Shown one piece after another: positions 11,988-36,968 of a stretch of DNA of 36,968 nucleotides; positions within the stretch are counted from its first letter, which is position 1; every line of letters starts with the position of its first letter. The notes under the pieces were generated by a model. The model had not been told where the DNA came from and made no database searches. It saw only the letters and a program-made list of their open reading frames with translations. The stretch spans positions 1 through 36,968 of the forward strand of contig JAUZOX010000001.1 in NCBI GenBank assembly GCA_030706265.1, read 5' to 3'. A program made the translations under genes and the position numbers. The DNA is from Bacteroidota bacterium. Its GTDB lineage: Bacteria > Bacteroidota > Bacteroidia > Bacteroidales > Cfx3-03.

Positions 11988-11990
11988 ATT

Positions 11991-12036
11991 TTTCAATACA
12001 GGGAAGACAAAGAGATTTGTCTTCCCTGTATTGAAA
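11991..12036 (+). terminator. Perfect 20-bp stem hairpin just after the susD stop
   Basis: tttcaatacagggaagacaa-agagat-ttgtcttccctgtattgaaa. The following T-run is weak (aaattg). Confidence 0.55.
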
Positions 12037-12324
12037 ATTGTCTAAAAATGAAAAATTAACTTTTGTATGTGAATAAGAGGAAGAAAAGTCACAACTTTAC
12101 TTTGCCAGGAAATAAATCCTGATCATTAAGGTTCACCTAAATCTTAGAAACCGTTTATATTTCATATCTCTAAGATTTTTTGTGTCGCCCCTCAAGCGGT
12201 TGCCGGAAGCACAAAAAATCAACAGACAGTTGTCTGATTTGGGTAAATTTTTGATTTTTGAACGTAGTTCTAATTTTTAAACAATCTGCTATAAACACGC
12301 AAAATAGTTGTAATTTAATTGAGT

Positions 12325-13779: not shown

Positions 13780-13812
13780 AAACTGGATTGCCAGTATTTT
13801 TTGATATATGTT

Positions 13813-15437
13813 ATCACTACTGTCCAGTTAAAATAATCTGAGTGACAGTTAAGTTCTTTGACATCTTTGTAATCTACATTTGCAATAAGCTCATTTACAG
13901 GAGTTTTATCAAGAAGTGATATCCCAATTACCTGTAATATTTCGTAGGTAGACCTTGATATTTTCAACTCATTCCCTACGATTGAAACCAGACAGTAGGT
14001 AATAAGAGCACAATAAATTTGGATTAGAACAGCATTTTGAGAAGTACCCCAAAAAGATTTTATTTTCAGATGTTGTTTAATCCATTTGAAGATGTTATGG
14101 AAAGCTTTACATAACTTCTTTTATGGAAAGTAAAAGATTATGTAAAGCAACATCGATAAATAGTGCTGTAACCATTATAAATAGGCAACTACTTTACAAT
14201 ATTACTTTACATAAATCTTAGAGCTAATTCTTAAAGTTTTCTTCAGATGAAGCAGATTGAGCCATAAACTGAACAAGGTTACTTTATCATAAAAATATAT
14301 TATGATCAAACATAGCAGATAATAAGCCTGATAATCAGTTTACTTAAACTACACCCAGCAGTTCTTCTCCTTTTTTGACATTATTTATTTTACTACTTTT
14401 AGCTCAAGCATAATGCTCATTATTAAATTAAACAATAATATTTATGGAAAGTGTTTATGGAAAGTAACAACGTGTTTAGGGCCTTTCAAGAAGGTAAATG
14501 CTAAATACTTTACATAATCTTTTACTTTCCATAAAAAAAGAGCTCTATCTGCCAACGATTTTTATATAGTAAGGCCACTTGAACGGACGTGATATCAAAA
14601 TTATTGGTTAGGTAAATGAATGTTCGATTGGTTTATTCATCGTGAAATTTAACTCTGCGAAGTTTGTCTGGATACCTTTTGGAAATATAAAATCCTTTGA
14701 GTTTGCCAATTTGGTTACATAATACACCAGAACTCTTGTCAATCTTTTGAGAATATATCCTGTTAAATTGAAGGTTTGATTTTGCACGGATAACAAAAAA
14801 GGCTGAATGTTGAGTTATCTTGAACAGTCTCGTGTAATCGACATAACCTCTGTCAAAGATGTAATACGCATTTTGCTCATAATTAAGATAATCCATTGCG
14901 TTTACATCATTCACCTTTGCAGGAGTAATATGCACGAAAGCAGGTATTTGAGTCGTTATATCAAAAAGAGTATGTAGTTTTATGCCTCTTTATGCCTCCT
15001 TTTGCTTTACGAAACTTTGCCCACCAGAAGACACTCAAACAGAGATCAATGGTTGATGAGTCAAAAGCATATACAGTTCCTTTGATCTCAAAATCATCAT
15101 TAGCTCTGTTCCTTCTGGCAATATCAATAAGGTGATAAGCAAACTCTTCAAATATTTTGCTATTTCTCGTTTCATTGGCTTTAGCCAGATTGCTCCTTGT
15201 AACGTTTTTTCCAAAACCCAGGTGGTAGGATTTGTTACTATGAGCATTCAAAGCAACCATTAAATCCCGAAGACTATCCCGATTAGTGAGTTGACCAAAG
15301 AGCATACAAAGCAATTGGTTCCAGCAAGTGAAATGCTTGACATACTTATTGCCTTCATACTTTTCAACTATACGATCGAAAATCCGTTGAGGGAGAAATT
15401 CAACTATCTGTGCGAACACATATATGCCTTGATTCAT
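13813..15437 (-). pseudogene. IS4-family transposase, inactivated
   Basis: N-terminus MNQGIYVFAQIVEFLP.. (DUF4372-like), then DSSTIDL, FDRGYVDY, and NRWQIELFF / FKWIKQHLKIKSFWGTSQNAV. Lesions: a 10-bp tandem duplication (14981-15000) causing a frameshift, an in-frame TAA at 14633-14635, and a ~446-bp insertion between the ELFF and FKWIKQ codons. Confidence 0.85.
14091..14539. mobile_element. ORF-less MITE-like element nested in the IS4 transposase gene
   Basis: Perfect 27-bp inverted repeats ttatggaaagtaaaagattatgtaaag (14121-14147) and its reverse complement (14508-14534). An extra 20-bp near-palindrome sits at 14095-14114. Boundaries are good to about +/-5 bp. Confidence 0.55.
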
Positions 15438-19874: not shown

Positions 19875-20009
19875 ATGAATAAAAGAAACTACTTACAGGC
19901 TTTAGCATTATTTCTCTTGCTAATAAATATAGCATTCTTCGTAAATGCTACAAATCTGAACAATAGCACCTCTAAAAAAAAATTCCGCATCAAATGGAGG
20001 GAAAATTAA
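19875..20009 (+). pseudogene. Orphan 5' fragment (signal peptide only), paralogous to the start of the GH106-like gene
   Basis: 44-codon ORF MNKRNYLQALALFLLLINIAFFVNA... About 120 bp are highly similar to 22497-22615, and similarity is lost after ~19998. Confidence 0.55.
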
Positions 20010-22447: not shown

Positions 22448-22547
22448 TATGTTTTCGCCCAGCTTTTGCAGTTTGTTAACATATGTGAATATGAAAAATA
22501 AAAACTGATGAAAAAAAAACTACTTACAGGCTTTAGCATTATTTCTC

Positions 22548-25490
22548 TTGCTAATAAATACAGCAATCTTTGTTAACGCTTCAAATCCGAACGATAGCAT
22601 CGCAAAAAACTTTTCCGCAGCAAGGGGTTCAACTCCTTATGTTTTGTGGCAATGGATGAACGGTTGTGTAACCAAAGAGGGTATTTCGTACGATTTAGAA
22701 GCATTTAAACGTATTGGTATAAAGAATGTGCAACAATTTTTAGTAGGTGGCATAGAGGCCGACATTAACGACCCCGATATAACCATACTTGGCGATAAAT
22801 GGATGGAACTAATGCGCTTTTCGCTCGGTGAATGCCAACGTTTAGGTATGGATTTTGGAACGCATAATTGTCCGGGGTGGTCGGCAAGTGGAGCGCCGGG
22901 CTTAAAAGTTGAAGAATCAATGCAAAAACTGATATGGGAGAAAACCTCATTGTCTGGCAGTACTTCTACATCAACCCCTATTACCAGGGCAAAAATCGAT
23001 ACTCTATGGAATTATTACAAGGATATATGCCTGATTGCTATCCCCAAAAATGAAGCGGTTCTCACTAGGGATAAAATTATAGTTATTACAGATGGCCTTG
23101 ATAAATCTGGCCAGCTAAAGAATGCCCTTCCTCAGGGCGAATGGGATGTTTTACGATTTGGACATACCACAATCGGCAAAAAGAATTTAACTGCACCGGT
23201 ATCCGGGCAAGGGTTGGAAGTGGACAAGCTGAGCCGGAAAGCTCTAACTAGTTTCTGGAGTTTATACCCCGAAAAACTTTTGGCAATGGCTGGAGAACAT
23301 GCTGGAAAAACGTTTAAGCGATTTGAAATTGATAGTTACGAAGCCGGAAATCAGGACTGGACACCCGATATGGCCAACGAATTTATGAACCGTCGGGGAT
23401 ATGCAATTTATCCTTGGTTAGTTGTTATCGCCGGATATACCGTAGAATCGAAAGATGTTACCGCACGCTTTAAATACGACTGGCAACGTACGATAAACGA
23501 ACTGTTTGCCGACAACTATTATGGCTACCTCAATGAATTAATTCATAAAGTCCCGGGATTGGAATTTTTGGTAGAACCTTATGGCACAGGAAAGAAAAAC
23601 TTTGACGAACTGGCGATACGTGGCATTGGCGATAAGGTTATGTGCGAATTTTGGACAAAACCTTCCACCTGGGGCTGGGAATCCATATTGCCCGTTTCTT
23701 CCAATGCACATGTTAACGGAAAAAAAATTGTAGCTGCCGAAGCTTTTACCGGGCAACCACAGTATGCTTTTCAGACAGATTTAGCCGCATTGAAAGTTTC
23801 AGGCGACCAGGCGTTCAGCGAAGGGGTTAACCTCTTTGTACTTCATGCAAGCGCCCATCAGCCTTGGCCACAGGTAAAGCCGGGTATGACGATGGGTTGG
23901 TGGGGAACTCAATTCGGGCCATCGCAAACATGGTGGAACCATGGTGCAGCCCAGTGGGTACAATACGTTACACGATGCCAAAATATTCTTCAAAAAGGAT
24001 TATTTGTTGGCGATTTGTGCTACTTACAACTGTATAGCCAAAAGAAAACCAACATTCCGCAAGGGTATAAGGCTGATATTTGTAACGAAAAAGAATTTTT
24101 TACCCGATTTTCGGTTAAAGAAAAGAAGCTTGTACTACCCGATGGAATGTCGTACCGAATATTGGTACTTCCCGACAGTTGCAAAATAGAACCGGAGCTT
24201 GCCCGCAAAATCGAAAAATCAGTTAACGATGGTGCAATTGTTGTTGGAAGTGGATTTACAGGTAGTCCGGGGTTAAACGGTTTTGCAACTACCAATAGCG
24301 AAATTCGAGCTATTAGCGAACGTTTATTTGGTACGTTTGGCGCAAAAGATCAGATGGCAAAAAATGTTCGAAATATTGGTAAGGGAAAAGTTTATTGCTG
24401 CTATTCCGCTCAGGAAGCTTTGGAAAAAGAAAATATTTCAAAAGACATTGAGGTTTTGAACAACGAAAAAGACGTGGCATGGATTCATCGCAACGATGGT
24501 GACGAACATTACTATTTCATTTCCAATTCATCTGCAAAAAATAAATCAATTCAAATAAGCTTTCGGATAAGCGAGATGCAGCCCGAAATATGGAATCCGG
24601 TTACAGGACAAATAGCCAATGCGTTGGTTTGGAAAACCGATAATAAGCGAACAACAGTATCCCTCAATATGGATGCCAATGGCTCGTGCTTTGTTGTGTT
24701 CCGTAATAAAAGTAAAAGTGCTTCGGGGGTCATAAAAGCCCTAAAGCTAAATAACGATACTGTCAACGTTAACGATCACCTAACATTTAATAATCAATTA
24801 ATTTTATATTCTAAAGGCGTTTATAAACTAATCTTACAAAACGGTAAAACCATTACAAAAGAAAACAATAGCGAGCCGGAAAAGATTCTTTTAAACGACG
24901 ATTGGGATGTTCGTTTTCAAGAAAATCGGGGTGCTCCTTCATCGGCTCATTTCGCGAAACTTATTTCGTGGCCTTTACATGCTGATTCCGCTATTAAATT
25001 CTTTTCAGGAACCGCACATTATAAAAAAACATTTCGGCTCAATTCCGAACAATTTAAACCTACCAAACGCATACTTATAGATTTAGGCGAAGTAAAAAAC
25101 GTTGCCACTATTACAGTCAATCAAAAAGAAGTAGCGGTTATTTGGAACCCACCATTTTCGGTAGATATTACCGACTATTGCAACTCCGGCGAAAACTTGT
25201 TGGAAATTGCAGTTACCAATCTTTGGCCAAACCGAATTATTGGAGATAAAACTCAGCCCGATGATTGTGTATGGGGTGCAATTCGCAGCTTCCCACCTTT
25301 TTCAATTGGTCGCAATCTTCAGGTTGTACCCGATTGGGTTAAAAATAAAACCGAACGCCCAAGCAAAAATCGTATAACCTTTTGTACTGTGGATTTCTTT
25401 AAAAAAGATACACCTTTATTACCGTCAGGTTTAATCGGTCCGGTTCAAATAACGGTTGAAGATACTTGGGATATTTATGGTGTACAATAA
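22548..25490 (+). CDS. Large glycoside hydrolase, GH106-like (alpha-L-rhamnosidase-type); 5' end out of frame with its ATG
   Basis: PYVLWQWMNGCVTKEGISYDLEAFKRIGIKNVQQF at the N-terminus and VTNLWPNRIIGD near the C-terminus resemble GH106 / 'glycosyl hydrolase' proteins of Bacteroidota. The frame is open back to 22512, but the only ATG (22508) is +1 off because of an A9 run. The family call is tentative. Confidence 0.55.
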   Translation: MLINTAIFVNASNPNDSIAKNFSAARGSTPYVLWQWMNGCVTKEGISYDLEAFKRIGIKNVQQFLVGGIEADINDPDITILGDKWMELMRFSLGECQRLGMDFGTHNCPGWSASGAPGLKVEESMQKLIWEKTSLSGSTSTSTPITRAKIDTLWNYYKDICLIAIPKNEAVLTRDKIIVITDGLDKSGQLKNALPQGEWDVLRFGHTTIGKKNLTAPVSGQGLEVDKLSRKALTSFWSLYPEKLLAMAGEHAGKTFKRFEIDSYEAGNQDWTPDMANEFMNRRGYAIYPWLVVIAGYTVESKDVTARFKYDWQRTINELFADNYYGYLNELIHKVPGLEFLVEPYGTGKKNFDELAIRGIGDKVMCEFWTKPSTWGWESILPVSSNAHVNGKKIVAAEAFTGQPQYAFQTDLAALKVSGDQAFSEGVNLFVLHASAHQPWPQVKPGMTMGWWGTQFGPSQTWWNHGAAQWVQYVTRCQNILQKGLFVGDLCYLQLYSQKKTNIPQGYKADICNEKEFFTRFSVKEKKLVLPDGMSYRILVLPDSCKIEPELARKIEKSVNDGAIVVGSGFTGSPGLNGFATTNSEIRAISERLFGTFGAKDQMAKNVRNIGKGKVYCCYSAQEALEKENISKDIEVLNNEKDVAWIHRNDGDEHYYFISNSSAKNKSIQISFRISEMQPEIWNPVTGQIANALVWKTDNKRTTVSLNMDANGSCFVVFRNKSKSASGVIKALKLNNDTVNVNDHLTFNNQLILYSKGVYKLILQNGKTITKENNSEPEKILLNDDWDVRFQENRGAPSSAHFAKLISWPLHADSAIKFFSGTAHYKKTFRLNSEQFKPTKRILIDLGEVKNVATITVNQKEVAVIWNPPFSVDITDYCNSGENLLEIAVTNLWPNRIIGDKTQPDDCVWGAIRSFPPFSIGRNLQVVPDWVKNKTERPSKNRITFCTVDFFKKDTPLLPSGLIGPVQITVEDTWDIYGVQ

Positions 25491-33536: not shown

Positions 33537-34075
33537 TCAAGTCTCTAATGCAACTTTGGTTAATTGGTTAAAGATATATAAAGGGGATCGATATCCCAAT
33601 CGTTTTTTGGGTCTGTTATTGAGTTTGTCCTCCACCCACTGCACCTGCTGATCCGAGACTCTGTCAAAGTCTGTTTTCTTAGGGAAAATACTGCCTTATC
33701 AGCCTGTTTGTGTTCTCGTTAGCGCCTCTTTCCCAGCTGTGATAAGGGCGGGCGAAGAAGAAATCGATGTTCAGGCATTCTCTGATCATTTCGTGTTTGG
33801 CAAATTCTTTTCCATTGTCGGAAGTGATGGTATGCAGGAAGTTCCTGTAATCGTATAGCAAATTGATGGTTGCCATGGCCATCCCTTTTGCTTCTTTGGA
33901 GGCCACTTTCTTGATCTTCACCAACCCTGATCTGAGGTCATTGGTGGTTCCATGGCTCCTTTATGATCCTTGCCGATAATGGTGTCCAGCTCAAAGTCTC
34001 CCACCCGGTTTTCTCTTCCACGATCAGAGGTCTTTGGGATATGTCCACCCTATTCAGAATTGGGTGGTCTAAAAA
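33537..34075 (-). pseudogene. IS30-family transposase, 5'-truncated and frameshifted
   Basis: ITSDNGKEFAKHEMI..FFARPYHSWERGANENTNRLIRQYFP, then (after a frameshift) KKTDFDRVSDQQVQWVEDKLNNRPKKRLGYRSP. An upstream frame carries NRVDISQRPLIVEEKT. Confidence 0.75.
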
Positions 34076-34104
34076 ATCTCGACAGAAAAATTGCTTACAT
34101 TTAA

Positions 34105-34236
34105 ATTTTCTGTCGTAGGAAAAGATCAAGAAGAGTATTTAGTGGAGAGTTCAAGGCCAAAGTAGCCATTGAAGCGGTAAAAGAGGAAAAGACGATTTCC
34201 GAACTGGCTCAGATTTATCAGGTACATCCCATCTGA
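34105..34236 (+). pseudogene. IS3-family orfA (HTH) N-terminal fragment
   Basis: RRKRSRRVFSGEFKAKVAIEAVKEEKTISELAQIYQVHP resembles IS3/IS911 OrfA starts. It ends in a stop with no orfB. Confidence 0.55.
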
Positions 34237-34277
34237 TAACCTCCTGTTTTCGTCAATGGGACACCCAAAAGATATTT

Positions 34278-34562
34278 TTATTTCATAATTATATCAAAAA
34301 GCTCCTGTTGTTCTCTGTCCATCTTTAGTTTTTGATTTTTTGTTTCCTTGGTGTGTGGGAGCTGATATCTGATTTGATACATATTGTGTGTTATTTCCTG
34401 AGCCCTTTTCAGACTTAATCCGGATTTCCGGGATTTAAGCAAGCGTTCCAATTCGAGCATAATTGTATATGCAGTGAAGCAAATGCAAATATGTGCCTTG
34501 ATCCTATTGTATAAACGATGGTAAATTGGACGTACCCGAAGATCGGTTTTGTTCATACGGAA
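34278..34562 (-). pseudogene. IS4-superfamily (IS1634-like) transposase, 3' fragment only
   Basis: FRMNKTDLRVRPIYHRLYNRIKAHICICFTAYTIMLELE matches the C-terminal FRxxKxxLxxRPIxH..IxAH block. The fragment begins 4 nt from the palindrome at 34567. Confidence 0.6.
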
Positions 34563-34566
34563 TGCC

Positions 34567-34586
34567 TTATGTAAAGCTTTACATAA
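34567..34586. repeat. Perfect 20-bp palindrome TTATGTAAAGCTTTACATAA joining two transposase 3' fragments head to head
   Basis: Read directly. A near-identical copy (TTATGGAAAGCTTTACATAA) is at 14095-14114. Confidence 0.95.
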
Positions 34587-34590
34587 AACA

Positions 34591-34963
34591 TATAAACAGC
34601 TCAAGCAGAATTTTCCTCTCAAATACTTTCTGGGAGACAATGATAATGCAATAAAAATTCAAATCTATTGTGCTTTGATTGCCAATTTACTAATGACAGT
34701 CATTCAAAAAATGCTCAAAAGAAGTTGGGCCTTCTCAAATCTTGTAAGTTTTTGCAAAATACACCTGTTCAATTACATTCATTTGATCAACTTTCTTGAA
34801 AATCCAGATAAAGACTGGCTTAAAACAATACAAATAGAACAACAATTGCAACTGTTCTAAAGTGACTAACTATTTAAAAAATGAGAAATCATAAAAACAC
34901 ATATTCTAATTCAATTAGTTATGAGTTGAAAAATGAGTTTTGTATTTTTACCGGACAACAATG
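34591..34963 (+). pseudogene. IS4-family (DUF4372-type lineage) transposase 3' fragment plus IS end
   Basis: YKQLKQNFPLKYFLGDNDNAIKIQIYCALIANLL aligns with FKWIKQHLKIKSFWGTSQNAVLIQIYCALITY of the 13.8-kb copy. The terminal gtatttttaccggacaacaatg (34942-34963) resembles that element's IR. Confidence 0.65.
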
Positions 34964-35110
34964 TTTGGTTTTAATAGTTTCAATCCTAAATCGCAAAACA
35001 AATACCAAATATCCATTTTGCCTTGATAACATTCTAAATCTCTAAGTCCATTAAAAGCGTTACGGTTGTCATATTCTTTTATGTATGGCGGATTACTAAT
35101 TAGTGTCTGG

Positions 35111-35549
35111 CTTTAAACTAGATTTCTCAATAAATATGCGGGTTCTATGATCGATACAAAAAAAGTTCTTTGTATCTTTGATCAAAGATAATCTCTTGAA
35201 ATTTTTCAATGATTTGCTTTTAAAATTTGAGCAGCCCAATTGGTCAAGGCAGCCGATATTTTGTTTAATTGATTCTAATCTTGAAAATCACCCACAGATT
35301 ATTTTAATGATGAAAGGGGACATTATTGGCCGTGATCCTGTCTCTCAATTCGGTCGCAAGGACACACCAAGCGTTGAGCAAATAGTACGGGCAGCGATAT
35401 TCAAAGAGGTGAAGGGTTACGATTATCGGGAACTGGAGGAAGCACAGATAGACTCAAGAGCCTGTGAAACCTTCATTAAACCTGAAGGTCGCGATCCATT
35501 CAGTTTCCAATTTTTTCATAAATACATCTCCAGAATTAAGCCTGAAACG
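35111..35549 (+). mobile_element. Left-hand portion of the IS5/ISNCY-like IS (partner of 3506-4693)
   Basis: IR-like end at 35111-35131. The transposase N-terminus (35178-35549) has a DUF772-like segment GRKDTPSVEQIVRAAIFKEVKGYDYRELEEAQIDSRACETF..ISRIKPET. It breaks at TGAAACG (35543-35549). The rest of ORF 35178..35759 is antisense read-through of the integrase gene. Confidence 0.65.
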
Positions 35550-35557
35550 ACTGATAG

Positions 35558-36463
35558 TCATCTATTTGTGAAGAAAGGGTGGTCTTGTAATCCTTTTGCA
35601 GTTTCTTCATTGCCAATTTTTAGGTACTTCTCCAGTAGTGCTATTGAAGAATGTCCTGAGAAGTTCTTTATCTCTCTTAAAGGGATACCTGCTCTAGCCA
35701 TATTAGTAAAGCAGGTTCTCCTCCCTGTATGTGATGATATTACTTCCCATAGTTCATAGTTTGTCTTTGTGGTTTGACCCTTTCTTTTTGTTGAGATTGT
35801 AACTGGTCGTTTTAATTTTGCTAGGTGTGCAGCTTCCTTTAAATACTTATTTAGTTTTTGATTAGATATTTGAGGAGGGAAGCCATTATATTTTTCTAAA
35901 ATGTCTGAAACATAAGGGTTAATAGACATCATCATAGTTTTACCTGTCTTTAATGACCTTGTACTAAGAAAACCTTTATTGGTGTTTTCTGATTGTAAAA
36001 TTACTGCATCACTAAATCTTAGTCCTGTGAAACATTGTACAATAAATATATCCCTTACCCAATCCCAGTGCCCTGTAAGAGGAGCAGTAGCAAATTGACG
36101 TACCTCATCTTCCTCTAATGCAACAGTATCTACATCTTCTGACATCTTTTTAAATTGGTTGAAGTCAATATTTGTATGTAGTTTCTTTAAATAGGTTGCA
36201 TTCATAAAAGCCTTCAATTTAGAACCAACAGTACCAGCATAATTTATTGCAGATCCTTTTTCATATATCATGTAATCCATAAGATCCATGTAAAAATTGA
36301 TATCTACTGTTTCAAATGAAGGTTCTTTTTTGTCTTTACAGAATTCCTCTAGGATAGATTTCATGGCATAATAGTTATCTGCTGCCCTTCTTCCTTTTAA
36401 ACTTACTATATTTTCAATGTGTTCGGTAAGATGTTGATAAAAAGACTTACCTTTCTTAGACAC
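35558..36463 (-). CDS. Tyrosine site-specific recombinase (phage-integrase family), probably lacking its N-terminal arm-binding domain
   Basis: SAM-like core-binding region, then catalytic R (TGLRFSD), HxxR (SHTGRRT), H (GHSS) and Y (LEKYLK). The frame stays open upstream of the GTG start to ~36556 without any ATG. The stop codon is 8 bp from the IS junction. Confidence 0.85.
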   Translation of the reverse strand: MSKKGKSFYQHLTEHIENIVSLKGRRAADNYYAMKSILEEFCKDKKEPSFETVDINFYMDLMDYMIYEKGSAINYAGTVGSKLKAFMNATYLKKLHTNIDFNQFKKMSEDVDTVALEEDEVRQFATAPLTGHWDWVRDIFIVQCFTGLRFSDAVILQSENTNKGFLSTRSLKTGKTMMMSINPYVSDILEKYNGFPPQISNQKLNKYLKEAAHLAKLKRPVTISTKRKGQTTKTNYELWEVISSHTGRRTCFTNMARAGIPLREIKNFSGHSSIALLEKYLKIGNEETAKGLQDHPFFTNR

Positions 36464-36626
36464 CGGTACAACACCAAATGCTTCCTCATCGAACCTTTGT
36501 TTAAACTCTTCTTTTGTTAGTCGGGTACCGTCTTTTTTAAATTCTCTTGAAAGATTTTGTTACCAGAAATCAAATATGCATGTATTTCGGCAATTAAGGA
36601 TGTATGTTTCTGAAGTCAAAAATAGG

Positions 36627-36968
36627 TTAAATATTAGTGCTTAGTTTATTCTCAAAGATGTTTTTTCGGTACTGCATGCGGTAGCTGTTTCCGGTTAATT
36701 TTATAATTTCGCATCGGTACAAGATCCGGTCCAAAAGTGCTGTTGTCAAGACAGTGTCTTTAAGTACATCGGCCCACTCCTTGGGAGATTTATTGGTGGT
36801 GATGATCAGTGAAGTCCTCTCGTGAAGATCATTGATCAGGTTAAAGAAACTCACCGCATCTTGCTGTGTTACGGGGAACATCATGATATCATCAATCACG
36901 AGCAGGTGGGACTTCATAATACGTTTGTATTCCACTGCAGCCTTACGGGTAATGTCTTTCATCTTTAA
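36627..36968 (-). CDS. istB: IS21-family IstB helper ATPase, C-terminal part (runs off the window edge)
   Basis: LLVIDDIMM (Walker B), [13 protein letters not shown] and [20 protein letters not shown] are typical IstB C-terminal blocks. The ORF is still open at 36968. Confidence 0.8.

Follow-up and report, generated by a model that had tools for sequence, protein, structure and literature searches.

Recombinase in trio (RIT) elements are a known, little-studied family carrying three tyrosine recombinases, originally described on plasmid pHG1 (PMC3414803). Published insertions lie in radC, in an IS66 tnpA and in the tnpA of Tn6049 (PMC3414803, PMC2864759), and the published classification groups the Rit proteins with the simple tyrosine recombinases related to Xer (PMC8138268). 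An overview from 2023 lists the target specificity of RITs and their mode of movement as not tested (PMC10214605). Here we describe traces of such elements in a stretch of 36,968 nucleotides (hereafter the window) from a Bacteroidota bacterium (NCBI GenBank assembly GCA_030706265.1, contig JAUZOX010000001.1, positions 1 to 36,968 of the forward strand). The window holds a 20-bp palindrome twice, once alone between two transposase gene fragments and once at the edge of a 440-bp insertion, and this palindrome is the end module of RIT elements. We show, furthermore, that RITs of the window's subfamily strike one codon of many diverged IS4 and IS1634 transposase genes, with the palindrome mostly on the 3' side. 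The family itself is known; codon-level targeting, miniature copies, solo ends, a triplicated 6-mer and dif-like cores appear to be undescribed in the RIT literature that we compared. Ricker et al. 2013, which lies outside that comparison, may hold part of the anatomy.

A pattern search of the whole window found a perfect 20-bp palindrome, TTATGTAAAG|CTTTACATAA, at 34567-34586 and a near-identical one, TTATGGAAAG|CTTTACATAA, at 14095-14114, two matches where 0.02 would be expected by chance. The half-site, T10 (TTATGKAAAG), occurs 12 times against 0.42 expected, and nine of these copies lie inside 14095-14534. Read outward, the minus strand beyond the 34567 palindrome continues with ggca and TTC CGT ATG AAC AAA, the plus strand beyond its other end at 34586 with aaca and TAT AAA CAG CTC AAG, and the minus strand beyond the 14095 palindrome with catc and TTC AAA TGG ATT AAA. 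Re-reading the sequence found both palindromes, their flanking codons and the constant 4-nt distance as a preliminary description of this DNA had given them. At 34567-34586 the half-sites T10 (TTATGTAAAG) and T10' (CTTTACATAA) stand back to back with arm repeats absent on both sides, the same module that ends complete RITs. Two transposase 3' fragments run outward from this solo palindrome: on the minus strand (34278-34562) the end of an IS1634-family gene (FRMNKTDLRVRPIYH.., positions 389-478 of the 483 in NCBIfam profile NF033559), and on the plus strand (34591-34860) that of a DUF4372-type IS4-family gene (YKQLKQNFPLKYFLG.., positions 294-330 of the 332 in NF033592). The IS4-type fragment beside the other palindrome likewise begins at position 294 of NF033592.

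The preliminary description had proposed that all three fragments start at one codon shared by two IS lineages. Related loci that retain both gene halves (L038, L091, L103, L271) have a junction of the form ..W-x-I-E-x-x | F-[KR]-x-x-K in IS4-like and IS1634-like genes alike. Together with the two profiles, they confirm at the level of sequence comparison that the three breakpoints are homologous positions, at the F/Y codon, 4 nt from the palindrome.

The identity of the palindrome emerges from its relatives in public collections. Viral contigs and genomes (one per species, at least 120 loci) were scanned for the palindrome, and a separate metagenome scan used the arm of the window's RIT subfamily; counts from the genome and metagenome scans are samples, among the matches listed. 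Seven palindrome copies were found in the viral-contig scan, none of them adjoining transposase fragments. At L006, a viral contig, the palindrome ends a 3.5-kb unit with three tandem, overlapping Phage_integrase genes (436, 349 and 358 aa) and complex inverted repeats built of T10 copies, the whole flanked by the 6-bp direct repeat ACTGAT. The genome loci, at least 120, come from Alpha-, Beta-, Gamma- and Deltaproteobacteria, Bacteroidota, Firmicutes, Spirochaetes, Ignavibacteria and others. Among the matches listed, 130 palindrome sites include 65 with an arm on one side, 55 that are solo and one with an arm on both sides, and the spacing 6+10+7+10 (6 nt, T10, 7 nt, T10) is invariant in all 65 arm-bearing sites. 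At L060, a long perfect palindrome (2000-2118) reads arm, 6 nt, palindrome, 6 nt, arm and continues beyond; a head-to-head junction, a replicated hairpin and an assembly foldback are all possible origins.

Complete units in the same sample (15 among the matches listed, 3.18-3.51 kb) all carry recombinase genes, and 12 of the 15 show three open reading frames (ORFs) of at least 250 aa. Across loci the three Rit genes encode about 410-440, 330-350 and 340-358 aa and lie in tandem, overlapping, between inverted T10 arms that stand 3.37-3.51 kb apart; a RitB of this set is 41% identical to one gene of the overlapping recombinase trio on pHG1. Indeed, palindrome-bearing relatives encode RitA, RitB and RitC, which bears out the earlier suggestion that a tyrosine-recombinase site is involved. 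In a search based on RitB, TTATGnnnAG|CTnnnCATAA closed one end of most RITs whose arms could be recognised; one RIT had it at both ends, and a few lacked it altogether. Since this search is independent of the palindrome and recovers it, the palindrome is a family-wide end module; it sits at the ritA-proximal or the ritC-proximal end, depending on the locus. Promoter, operator and iteron readings of the half-sites were dropped, the half-sites being the ends of recombinase-bearing elements, and an Rfam scan of the window gave zero family matches.

In the orientation of the target gene, a complete insertion reads Y-O-[T10-7-T10 ... T10'-7-T10']-O(inverted)-T10|T10'-O-X, Y being the 5' part of the target and X its 3' part; O is 6 bp, T10 is TTATGNAAAG, and each RIT end carries an arm of two T10 copies 7 bp apart. 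At L041, for example, the target reads LAGVPGT|GK|THML across the insertion and GGGCAA is present three times. The outer O copies form a direct repeat, perfect over 6 bp in L006, L041, L048, L138, L139 and L140. Internal and flanking 6-mers differ on average at 1.33 positions, compared with 4.26 when shuffled (n=63), and an independent sample gave 1.48 against 4.21 (n=54). The 4-nt spacer of the preliminary description, therefore, keeps its constant length but not its separate standing: together with the first two bases of the F codon it makes up one 6-bp region, O. At the solo site these regions, candidates for crossover or coupling, are GGCATT on the left, read outward (34561-34566, minus strand), and AACATA on the right (34587-34592, plus strand).

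Placed around 6 bp, T10' and T10 give CTTTNCATAA-N6-TTATGNAAAG, with the core CATAA-N6-TTATG, and so have the form of a dif-type core, two inverted arms of about 10-11 bp with a 6-bp centre. The dif site of Bordetella pertussis is AATTCGCATAA-TGTATA-TTATGTAAAGT and that of Geobacter ACGTCCCATAA-GATATA-TTATGTAAAGT, and several published dif sites have an XerD arm that matches T10 exactly (PMC2731167). The comparison with dif came from a literature search with the half-site sequence, which matched no RIT paper. On dif, XerC and XerD make their cuts where the 6-bp central region meets the arms; by this analogy the crossover regions would be the 6-bp stretches that flank the palindrome, and the central AAGCTT is a less likely candidate. 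The preliminary description had read the palindrome as a recombinase core with 7-bp arms around AAGCTT. It was right about the type of site, while the placing of the core gives way, on the dif layout, to the flanking 6-mers as the likelier crossovers.

The second palindrome of the window belongs to a 440-bp element at 14095-14534 (no strand assigned), with RIT-like ends and no recombinase genes. The palindrome itself (14095-14114) is followed by an internal 6-mer, CTTCTT (14115-14120), a left arm T10-7-T10 (14121-14147), further T10 copies at 14205, 14442 and 14455, and a right arm (14508-14534). The element is bounded by 33-nt inverted repeats, 97% complementary, with the palindrome making up the outermost 20 bp; described RITs likewise have terminal inverted repeats next to a palindrome, and RITs found via RitB have the same architecture. 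Two parts of one IS4 pseudogene lie on either side on the minus strand, the frameshifted 5' part at 14541-15437, which ends ..KNRWQIEL (Pfam DUF4372, E=2e-32; NF033592 positions 2-141), and the 3' part at 13780-14090 (FKWIKQHLKIKSFWGTSQNAVLIQIY.., NF033592 positions 294-330). This arrangement indicates that a small element inserted in the transposase gene.

In gene orientation the insertion reads Y ..RWQIEL, O CTTTTT (14535-14540, minus strand), a 414-bp body, an inverted O (CTTCTT read outward from the palindrome), the palindrome, O CATCTT (14089-14094, minus strand) and X starting C AAA TGG.. (FKWIK), the outer two O copies being the candidate crossover regions of the Y and X sides. The 6-mer on the Y side completes a native-looking ..IE-L-F-F, and the Y end of L245 reads ..RWQIELF with GTTCTT. 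The two flanking 6-mers are identical at 4 of 6 positions. Neither the T10 repeats nor this 440-bp element between the 3' and 5' parts of one gene had figured in the preliminary description.

Over its right ~283 nt the element shares 68% identity with the full RIT of L091 at the ritA-proximal end, the start of ritA included, and each of its two ends matches RIT ends in L091, L038 and L068 at 87-94% identity. A tblastn search of the window with 15 Rit proteins gave no match, and the element contains no recombinase ORF. Hence neither window copy is an autonomous RIT: the recombinase trio is absent and the copies measure 440 bp and 20 bp, against about 3.5 kb for the unit. RIT-like ends combined with no coding capacity point to an internally deleted, non-autonomous RIT. 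L038 has another small copy, of 463 bp, that interrupts an IS4 gene at the same codon, and L125 has one of 814 bp in istB; copies of 379 bp and 375 bp lie at L043 and L052. For movement the miniature would need RitABC supplied in trans or, conceivably, host Xer proteins.

Flanks of palindrome copies, tabulated across public collections, showed recurrent targets at fixed spacing. Among the matches listed in the genome sample, 26 flanks read outward G-K-[TS].., most of them in IstB of IS21; many of these flanks keep an ORF of over 100 codons, suggesting that the insertions are recent. A further 17 flanks, again among the matches listed, fit x-[FY]-[KR]-x-x-[KR], about 13 with further IS4/IS1634-type sequence downstream, and in all 17 the F/Y codon lies 4 nt from the palindrome. 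When 131 flank ORFs among the matches listed were compared with profiles, 15 were assigned to IstB, nine to IS4, five to IS66 and three to IS1634, these by NCBIfam, and two each to group II intron reverse transcriptase and IS481, with RadC, IS91-type, integron integrase and others once each. Both radC and IS66, known from published RITs, were recovered in these scans.

The arm-based metagenome scan, chosen for its independence from the palindrome, yielded 108 unique evaluable ends after removal of duplicates. Forty of the 108, among the matches listed, lie in IS4-superfamily genes. Their polarity is marked: 15 palindrome-bearing ends abut X (xF[KR]xxK..), 23 palindrome-less ends abut Y (..[WR]xIExx) and two are exceptions. 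Many diverged lineages are represented among the Y and X sequences, including both the ..RPIYH (IS1634) and the ..IQIW.ALI (IS4) types. Conservation at the DNA level is confined to TGG, AT.GA, the TT that closes the 6-mer and the YA after it; an IS4 target segment can be written ..CGNTGGNNNATHGARNN-NNNNTT-YAAR... Targeted insertion or recombination, as opposed to random decay, had been suggested for the window, and the recurrence of the same codon and layout in many independent loci upholds it.

For the same subfamily, DUF932 is about as frequent a target as IS4, with about 28 ends among the matches listed, always at ETAGALG[KN] | GERIFITAKLP (L222, L223, L232, L289, L319 and others). Further recurrent targets are IS66 (|LGRKN), IS3 (DIT|Y) and an unassigned sequence, GCAGTTTGTTTGGNGCTTACAATGC | CNGTNA | ACNGGNTATTTTCAAAATGT, with about 20 ends among the matches listed (L217, L221, L237, L274; X sides L242, L248, L281); variation there falls mostly on every third base, which suggests a coding sequence. 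Thus, the idea of a parasite specific to IS4-type transposases survives as a preference, expressed in the 40 of 108 ends, and fails as exclusivity, given insertions in IstB (at Walker A), IS66, DUF932, IS3, RadC and group II intron reverse transcriptases.

Taken together, we consider the window probably best explained by the following account, in which RIT identity is combined with a dif-like two-core model and recombination at a spare core. A free or tandem RIT would carry the junction arm'-O-T10|T10'-O-arm, that is, two dif-like cores abutting at the palindrome. Integration would proceed through one core, leaving the other intact inside the inserted element, where it could recombine with a second, naive copy of the target (Y2-O-X2). 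One product would be Y1-O-E-O-Y2', a palindrome-less element (E) between two 5' parts; the other would be X2'-O-T10|T10'-O-X1, a solo palindrome between two 3' parts, as at 34567-34586. The 6-mer borne by the element would be a memory of its previous target and would contribute to the choice of the next.

Full elements of the arm-based sample occur in all three configurations that this model predicts, and so support it: Y-E-palindrome-X (L271, L289, L319), Y-E-Y' without a palindrome (L236, L253, L272, L277) and X'-palindrome-E-palindrome-X (L216, L233, L307). At L233, GGCATT adjoins an IS1634-like fragment, AFRMSKTDLRIRPIYHRLKHRIEAHICISFTAY, a close counterpart of the one in the window, at both ends of a full RIT. 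The head-to-head geometry of the solo site recurs between two IstB fragments (L034, L050, L067, L093) and between two IS4 fragments (L032, L035, L115). The solo palindrome of the window, with its two different 3' parts, would then be what remains, as an expected by-product, after an inserted RIT has recombined with another copy of the target. The preliminary description had already regarded this junction as a recombination product, and its match to the configurations predicted among RIT loci agrees with that. Finally, three metagenomic contigs (L261, L264 and L218) are each one RIT unit in circular permutation, their ends meeting inside the palindrome; L261 has a terminal overlap of 28 nt, and the junction reads arm'-O-palindrome-O-arm.

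Several observations weigh against this account. The three 6-mers at the window insertion (CTTTTT, CTTCTT, CATCTT) differ from one another, as do the two at the solo site, at 3 of 6 positions. The pHG1 RIT that we examined (L328, NC_005241.1 49213-57196) has a different end layout, in which the two sides carry a TTATGTAGAG..CTGCACATAA pair in one and the same orientation and a separate palindrome, GCGCAAATGTGCTGCAGCACATTTGCGC, is present. No T10-like arms lie beside the target 6-mer in any target class examined, and 6 bp alone are insufficient for codon-level specificity in very diverged genes. The unit-length contigs may be circles, tandem copies or assembly artefacts at the palindrome. Moreover, transposition has not been shown experimentally for any RIT (PMC10214605), and the crossover positions and the two-core model are for this reason inferred from sequence layouts and the dif analogy.

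Other explanations of the solo junction fare less well against the same loci. If the palindrome were itself the core, with crossover at the dyad centre between 7-bp arms around AAGCTT, the junction could have arisen from two separately inserted RITs, one in each transposase gene. The central AGCT is indeed invariant in the palindromes of diverged RITs, a symmetric spacer would permit antiparallel alignment, and the reciprocal product, arm-palindrome-arm, is seen once, at L060. That single case, however, lies 40 nt from the end of a contig, is a perfect foldback and could be artefactual. The dif analogy places cleavage on the CATAA/TTATG side, beside the 6-bp spacers, and not on the AAAG side, and crossover at the dyad centre would require two prior insertions rather than one. 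Nor does it predict palindrome-less elements between two 5' parts, yet four were found, and we judge it improbable.

Still less likely, in our view, is a hairpin intermediate of the telomere-resolvase type, whereby Rit enzymes would cut around the dyad and seal hairpins, and re-fusion or replication would duplicate the flanks in inverted orientation around a solo palindrome. A mobilome study found exonuclease-protected RIT DNA with no detectable circle junctions and proposed hairpin intermediates (PMC5737581); many solo sites have inverted-repeat flanks extending well beyond 6 bp (L019, L045, L076, L121), and the perfect foldback of L060 would fit as well. At the solo site of the window and at L050, L067, L093 and L115, however, the flanks are diverged or belong to different genes and are not replicas, and circles or tandems would account for the unit-length contigs permuted at the palindrome. 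The palindromes also form weak hairpins as single-stranded DNA (ssDNA), at -4.8 and -6.7 kcal/mol, no more than expected for an AT-rich palindrome, so that the hairpin or cruciform once envisaged here finds little favour. The same weakness bears on the suggestion that the palindrome is a subterminal hairpin of an ssDNA transposon (IS200/IS605 or PATE), or else an unrelated regulatory operator beside decayed transposase genes. Transposons of the IS200/IS605 or PATE type have subterminal hairpins and a Y1 (HUH) transposase, lack terminal inverted repeats and insert on the 3' side of a short, specific sequence. A perfect palindrome with half-sites repeated nearby would suit the hairpin as well as the operator, but the 33-nt terminal inverted repeats, the multi-copy arm sites within the element, full-length relatives that encode three tyrosine recombinases and no HUH transposase, and a position relative to the target codon that is fixed in dozens of independent loci leave this reading scarcely credible.

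Returning to the RIT account with its spare core, a wider and more tentative idea may be entertained. RITs might be hyperparasites of mobile elements in which a heritable 6-bp 'address' from the last site, combined with a second read-out of the surrounding DNA, homes to codons of catalytic motifs: IS4/IS1634 E..F[KR], IstB Walker A, IS66, IS3 DIT, RadC HNHPSG and group II intron reverse transcriptase. The genes hit would be inactivated, different IS copies would be recombined with one another via the spare internal core, with solo palindromes and inversions as the outcome, and, because RIT cores mimic dif, gene-less miniatures like that of the window might be moved by host XerC/D. We regard this as possible, with well under even chances.

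The window as a whole is a Bacteroidota-type polysaccharide utilisation locus with an ECF sigma/anti-sigma pair, SusC/SusD-like proteins, GH115, GH106, GH78 and GH2. The interrupted IS sits midway along the locus, and IS fragments cluster at its right end (33679-36968), where mobile-element debris accompanies the solo palindrome: an IS30 fragment (33679-33924, minus strand), an N-terminal ISNCY fragment (35178-35759, plus strand) and a C-terminal IstB fragment that runs off the window end (36968). The ISNCY fragment is overlapped by a tyrosine recombinase gene (35558-36463, minus strand, 301 aa). As a Rit protein this local recombinase was rejected; it is ~21% identical to RitB and is a generic integrase.

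Three repeats elsewhere in the window may be recorded. At 1665-1826, within ORFs that overlap on both strands, a 54-nt unit stands three times in tandem, the copies being 100, 94 and 76% identical to the reference. The GH115 and GH106 genes share a direct repeat of 98 nt (19881-19978 and 22512-22609, 88% identical) that lies at their starts or just ahead of them; a common leader, promoter or signal-peptide segment is a possible reading. The SusD-like gene is followed directly by a perfect inverted repeat of 22 nt around a 4-nt loop (11990-12037), probably a terminator.

RITs span many bacterial phyla, and the layouts collected here give a testable model of dif-like cores, a triplicated 6-bp crossover region and a spare core that would drive rearrangements. 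If this is true, transposases are silenced and IS copies reshuffled by elements of a widespread class, RIT-driven events can be recognised by the solo palindromes they leave as footprints, and a recombination site that is short, portable and, through its 6-bp address, partly programmable may serve as a tool. For annotation, the model accounts for recurrent truncated IS4, IS1634 and IstB genes that begin or end at one residue.

How, then, do the elements of the window compare with known systems? With described RITs the agreement lies in their relatives: those with window-type ends have three adjacent, overlapping recombinase genes in a unit of ~3.5 kb, with an inverted repeat and an adjoining palindrome (PMC3414803, PMC2864759), whereas the window copies are a 440-bp gene-less derivative and a lone 20-bp end module. 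XerCD/dif and IMEX share with RITs the inverted arms ..CATAA / TTATG.. around a 6-bp centre. RITs differ from these in encoding their own three recombinases, in their extra arm repeats and two back-to-back cores, and in targets that lack recognisable arms and are not the chromosomal dif.

Tn554, strand-biased circularizing integrative elements (SE) and GInt resemble RITs in having several tyrosine recombinases. In those elements 6 bp of donor flank travel along and appear at one new junction (PMC10214605), much like the mismatched 6-mers here. Tn554, however, has no inverted terminal repeats and has two recombinases (TnpA, TnpB) plus TnpC, against the three recombinases and clear inverted repeats of RITs; SE and GInt have a fourth essential protein, and a back-to-back half-site palindrome is found in none of the three. 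Membership of the Tn554 family was accordingly rejected, the similarity being confined to the behaviour of the 6-bp coupling sequence.

Miniature inverted-repeat elements (MITEs) offer another parallel. Classical MITEs derive from DDE transposons, the window element from a tyrosine-recombinase element. Like a MITE, the latter is small, non-coding and bounded by inverted repeats; both its ends are homologous to an autonomous element and its interior has been lost by internal deletion. Homing elements (group I and II introns, inteins) differ in that RITs have neither splicing nor a homing endonuclease and simply inactivate the host gene. What RITs share with them is recurrent insertion at the most conserved catalytic-motif codons of diverged homologues.

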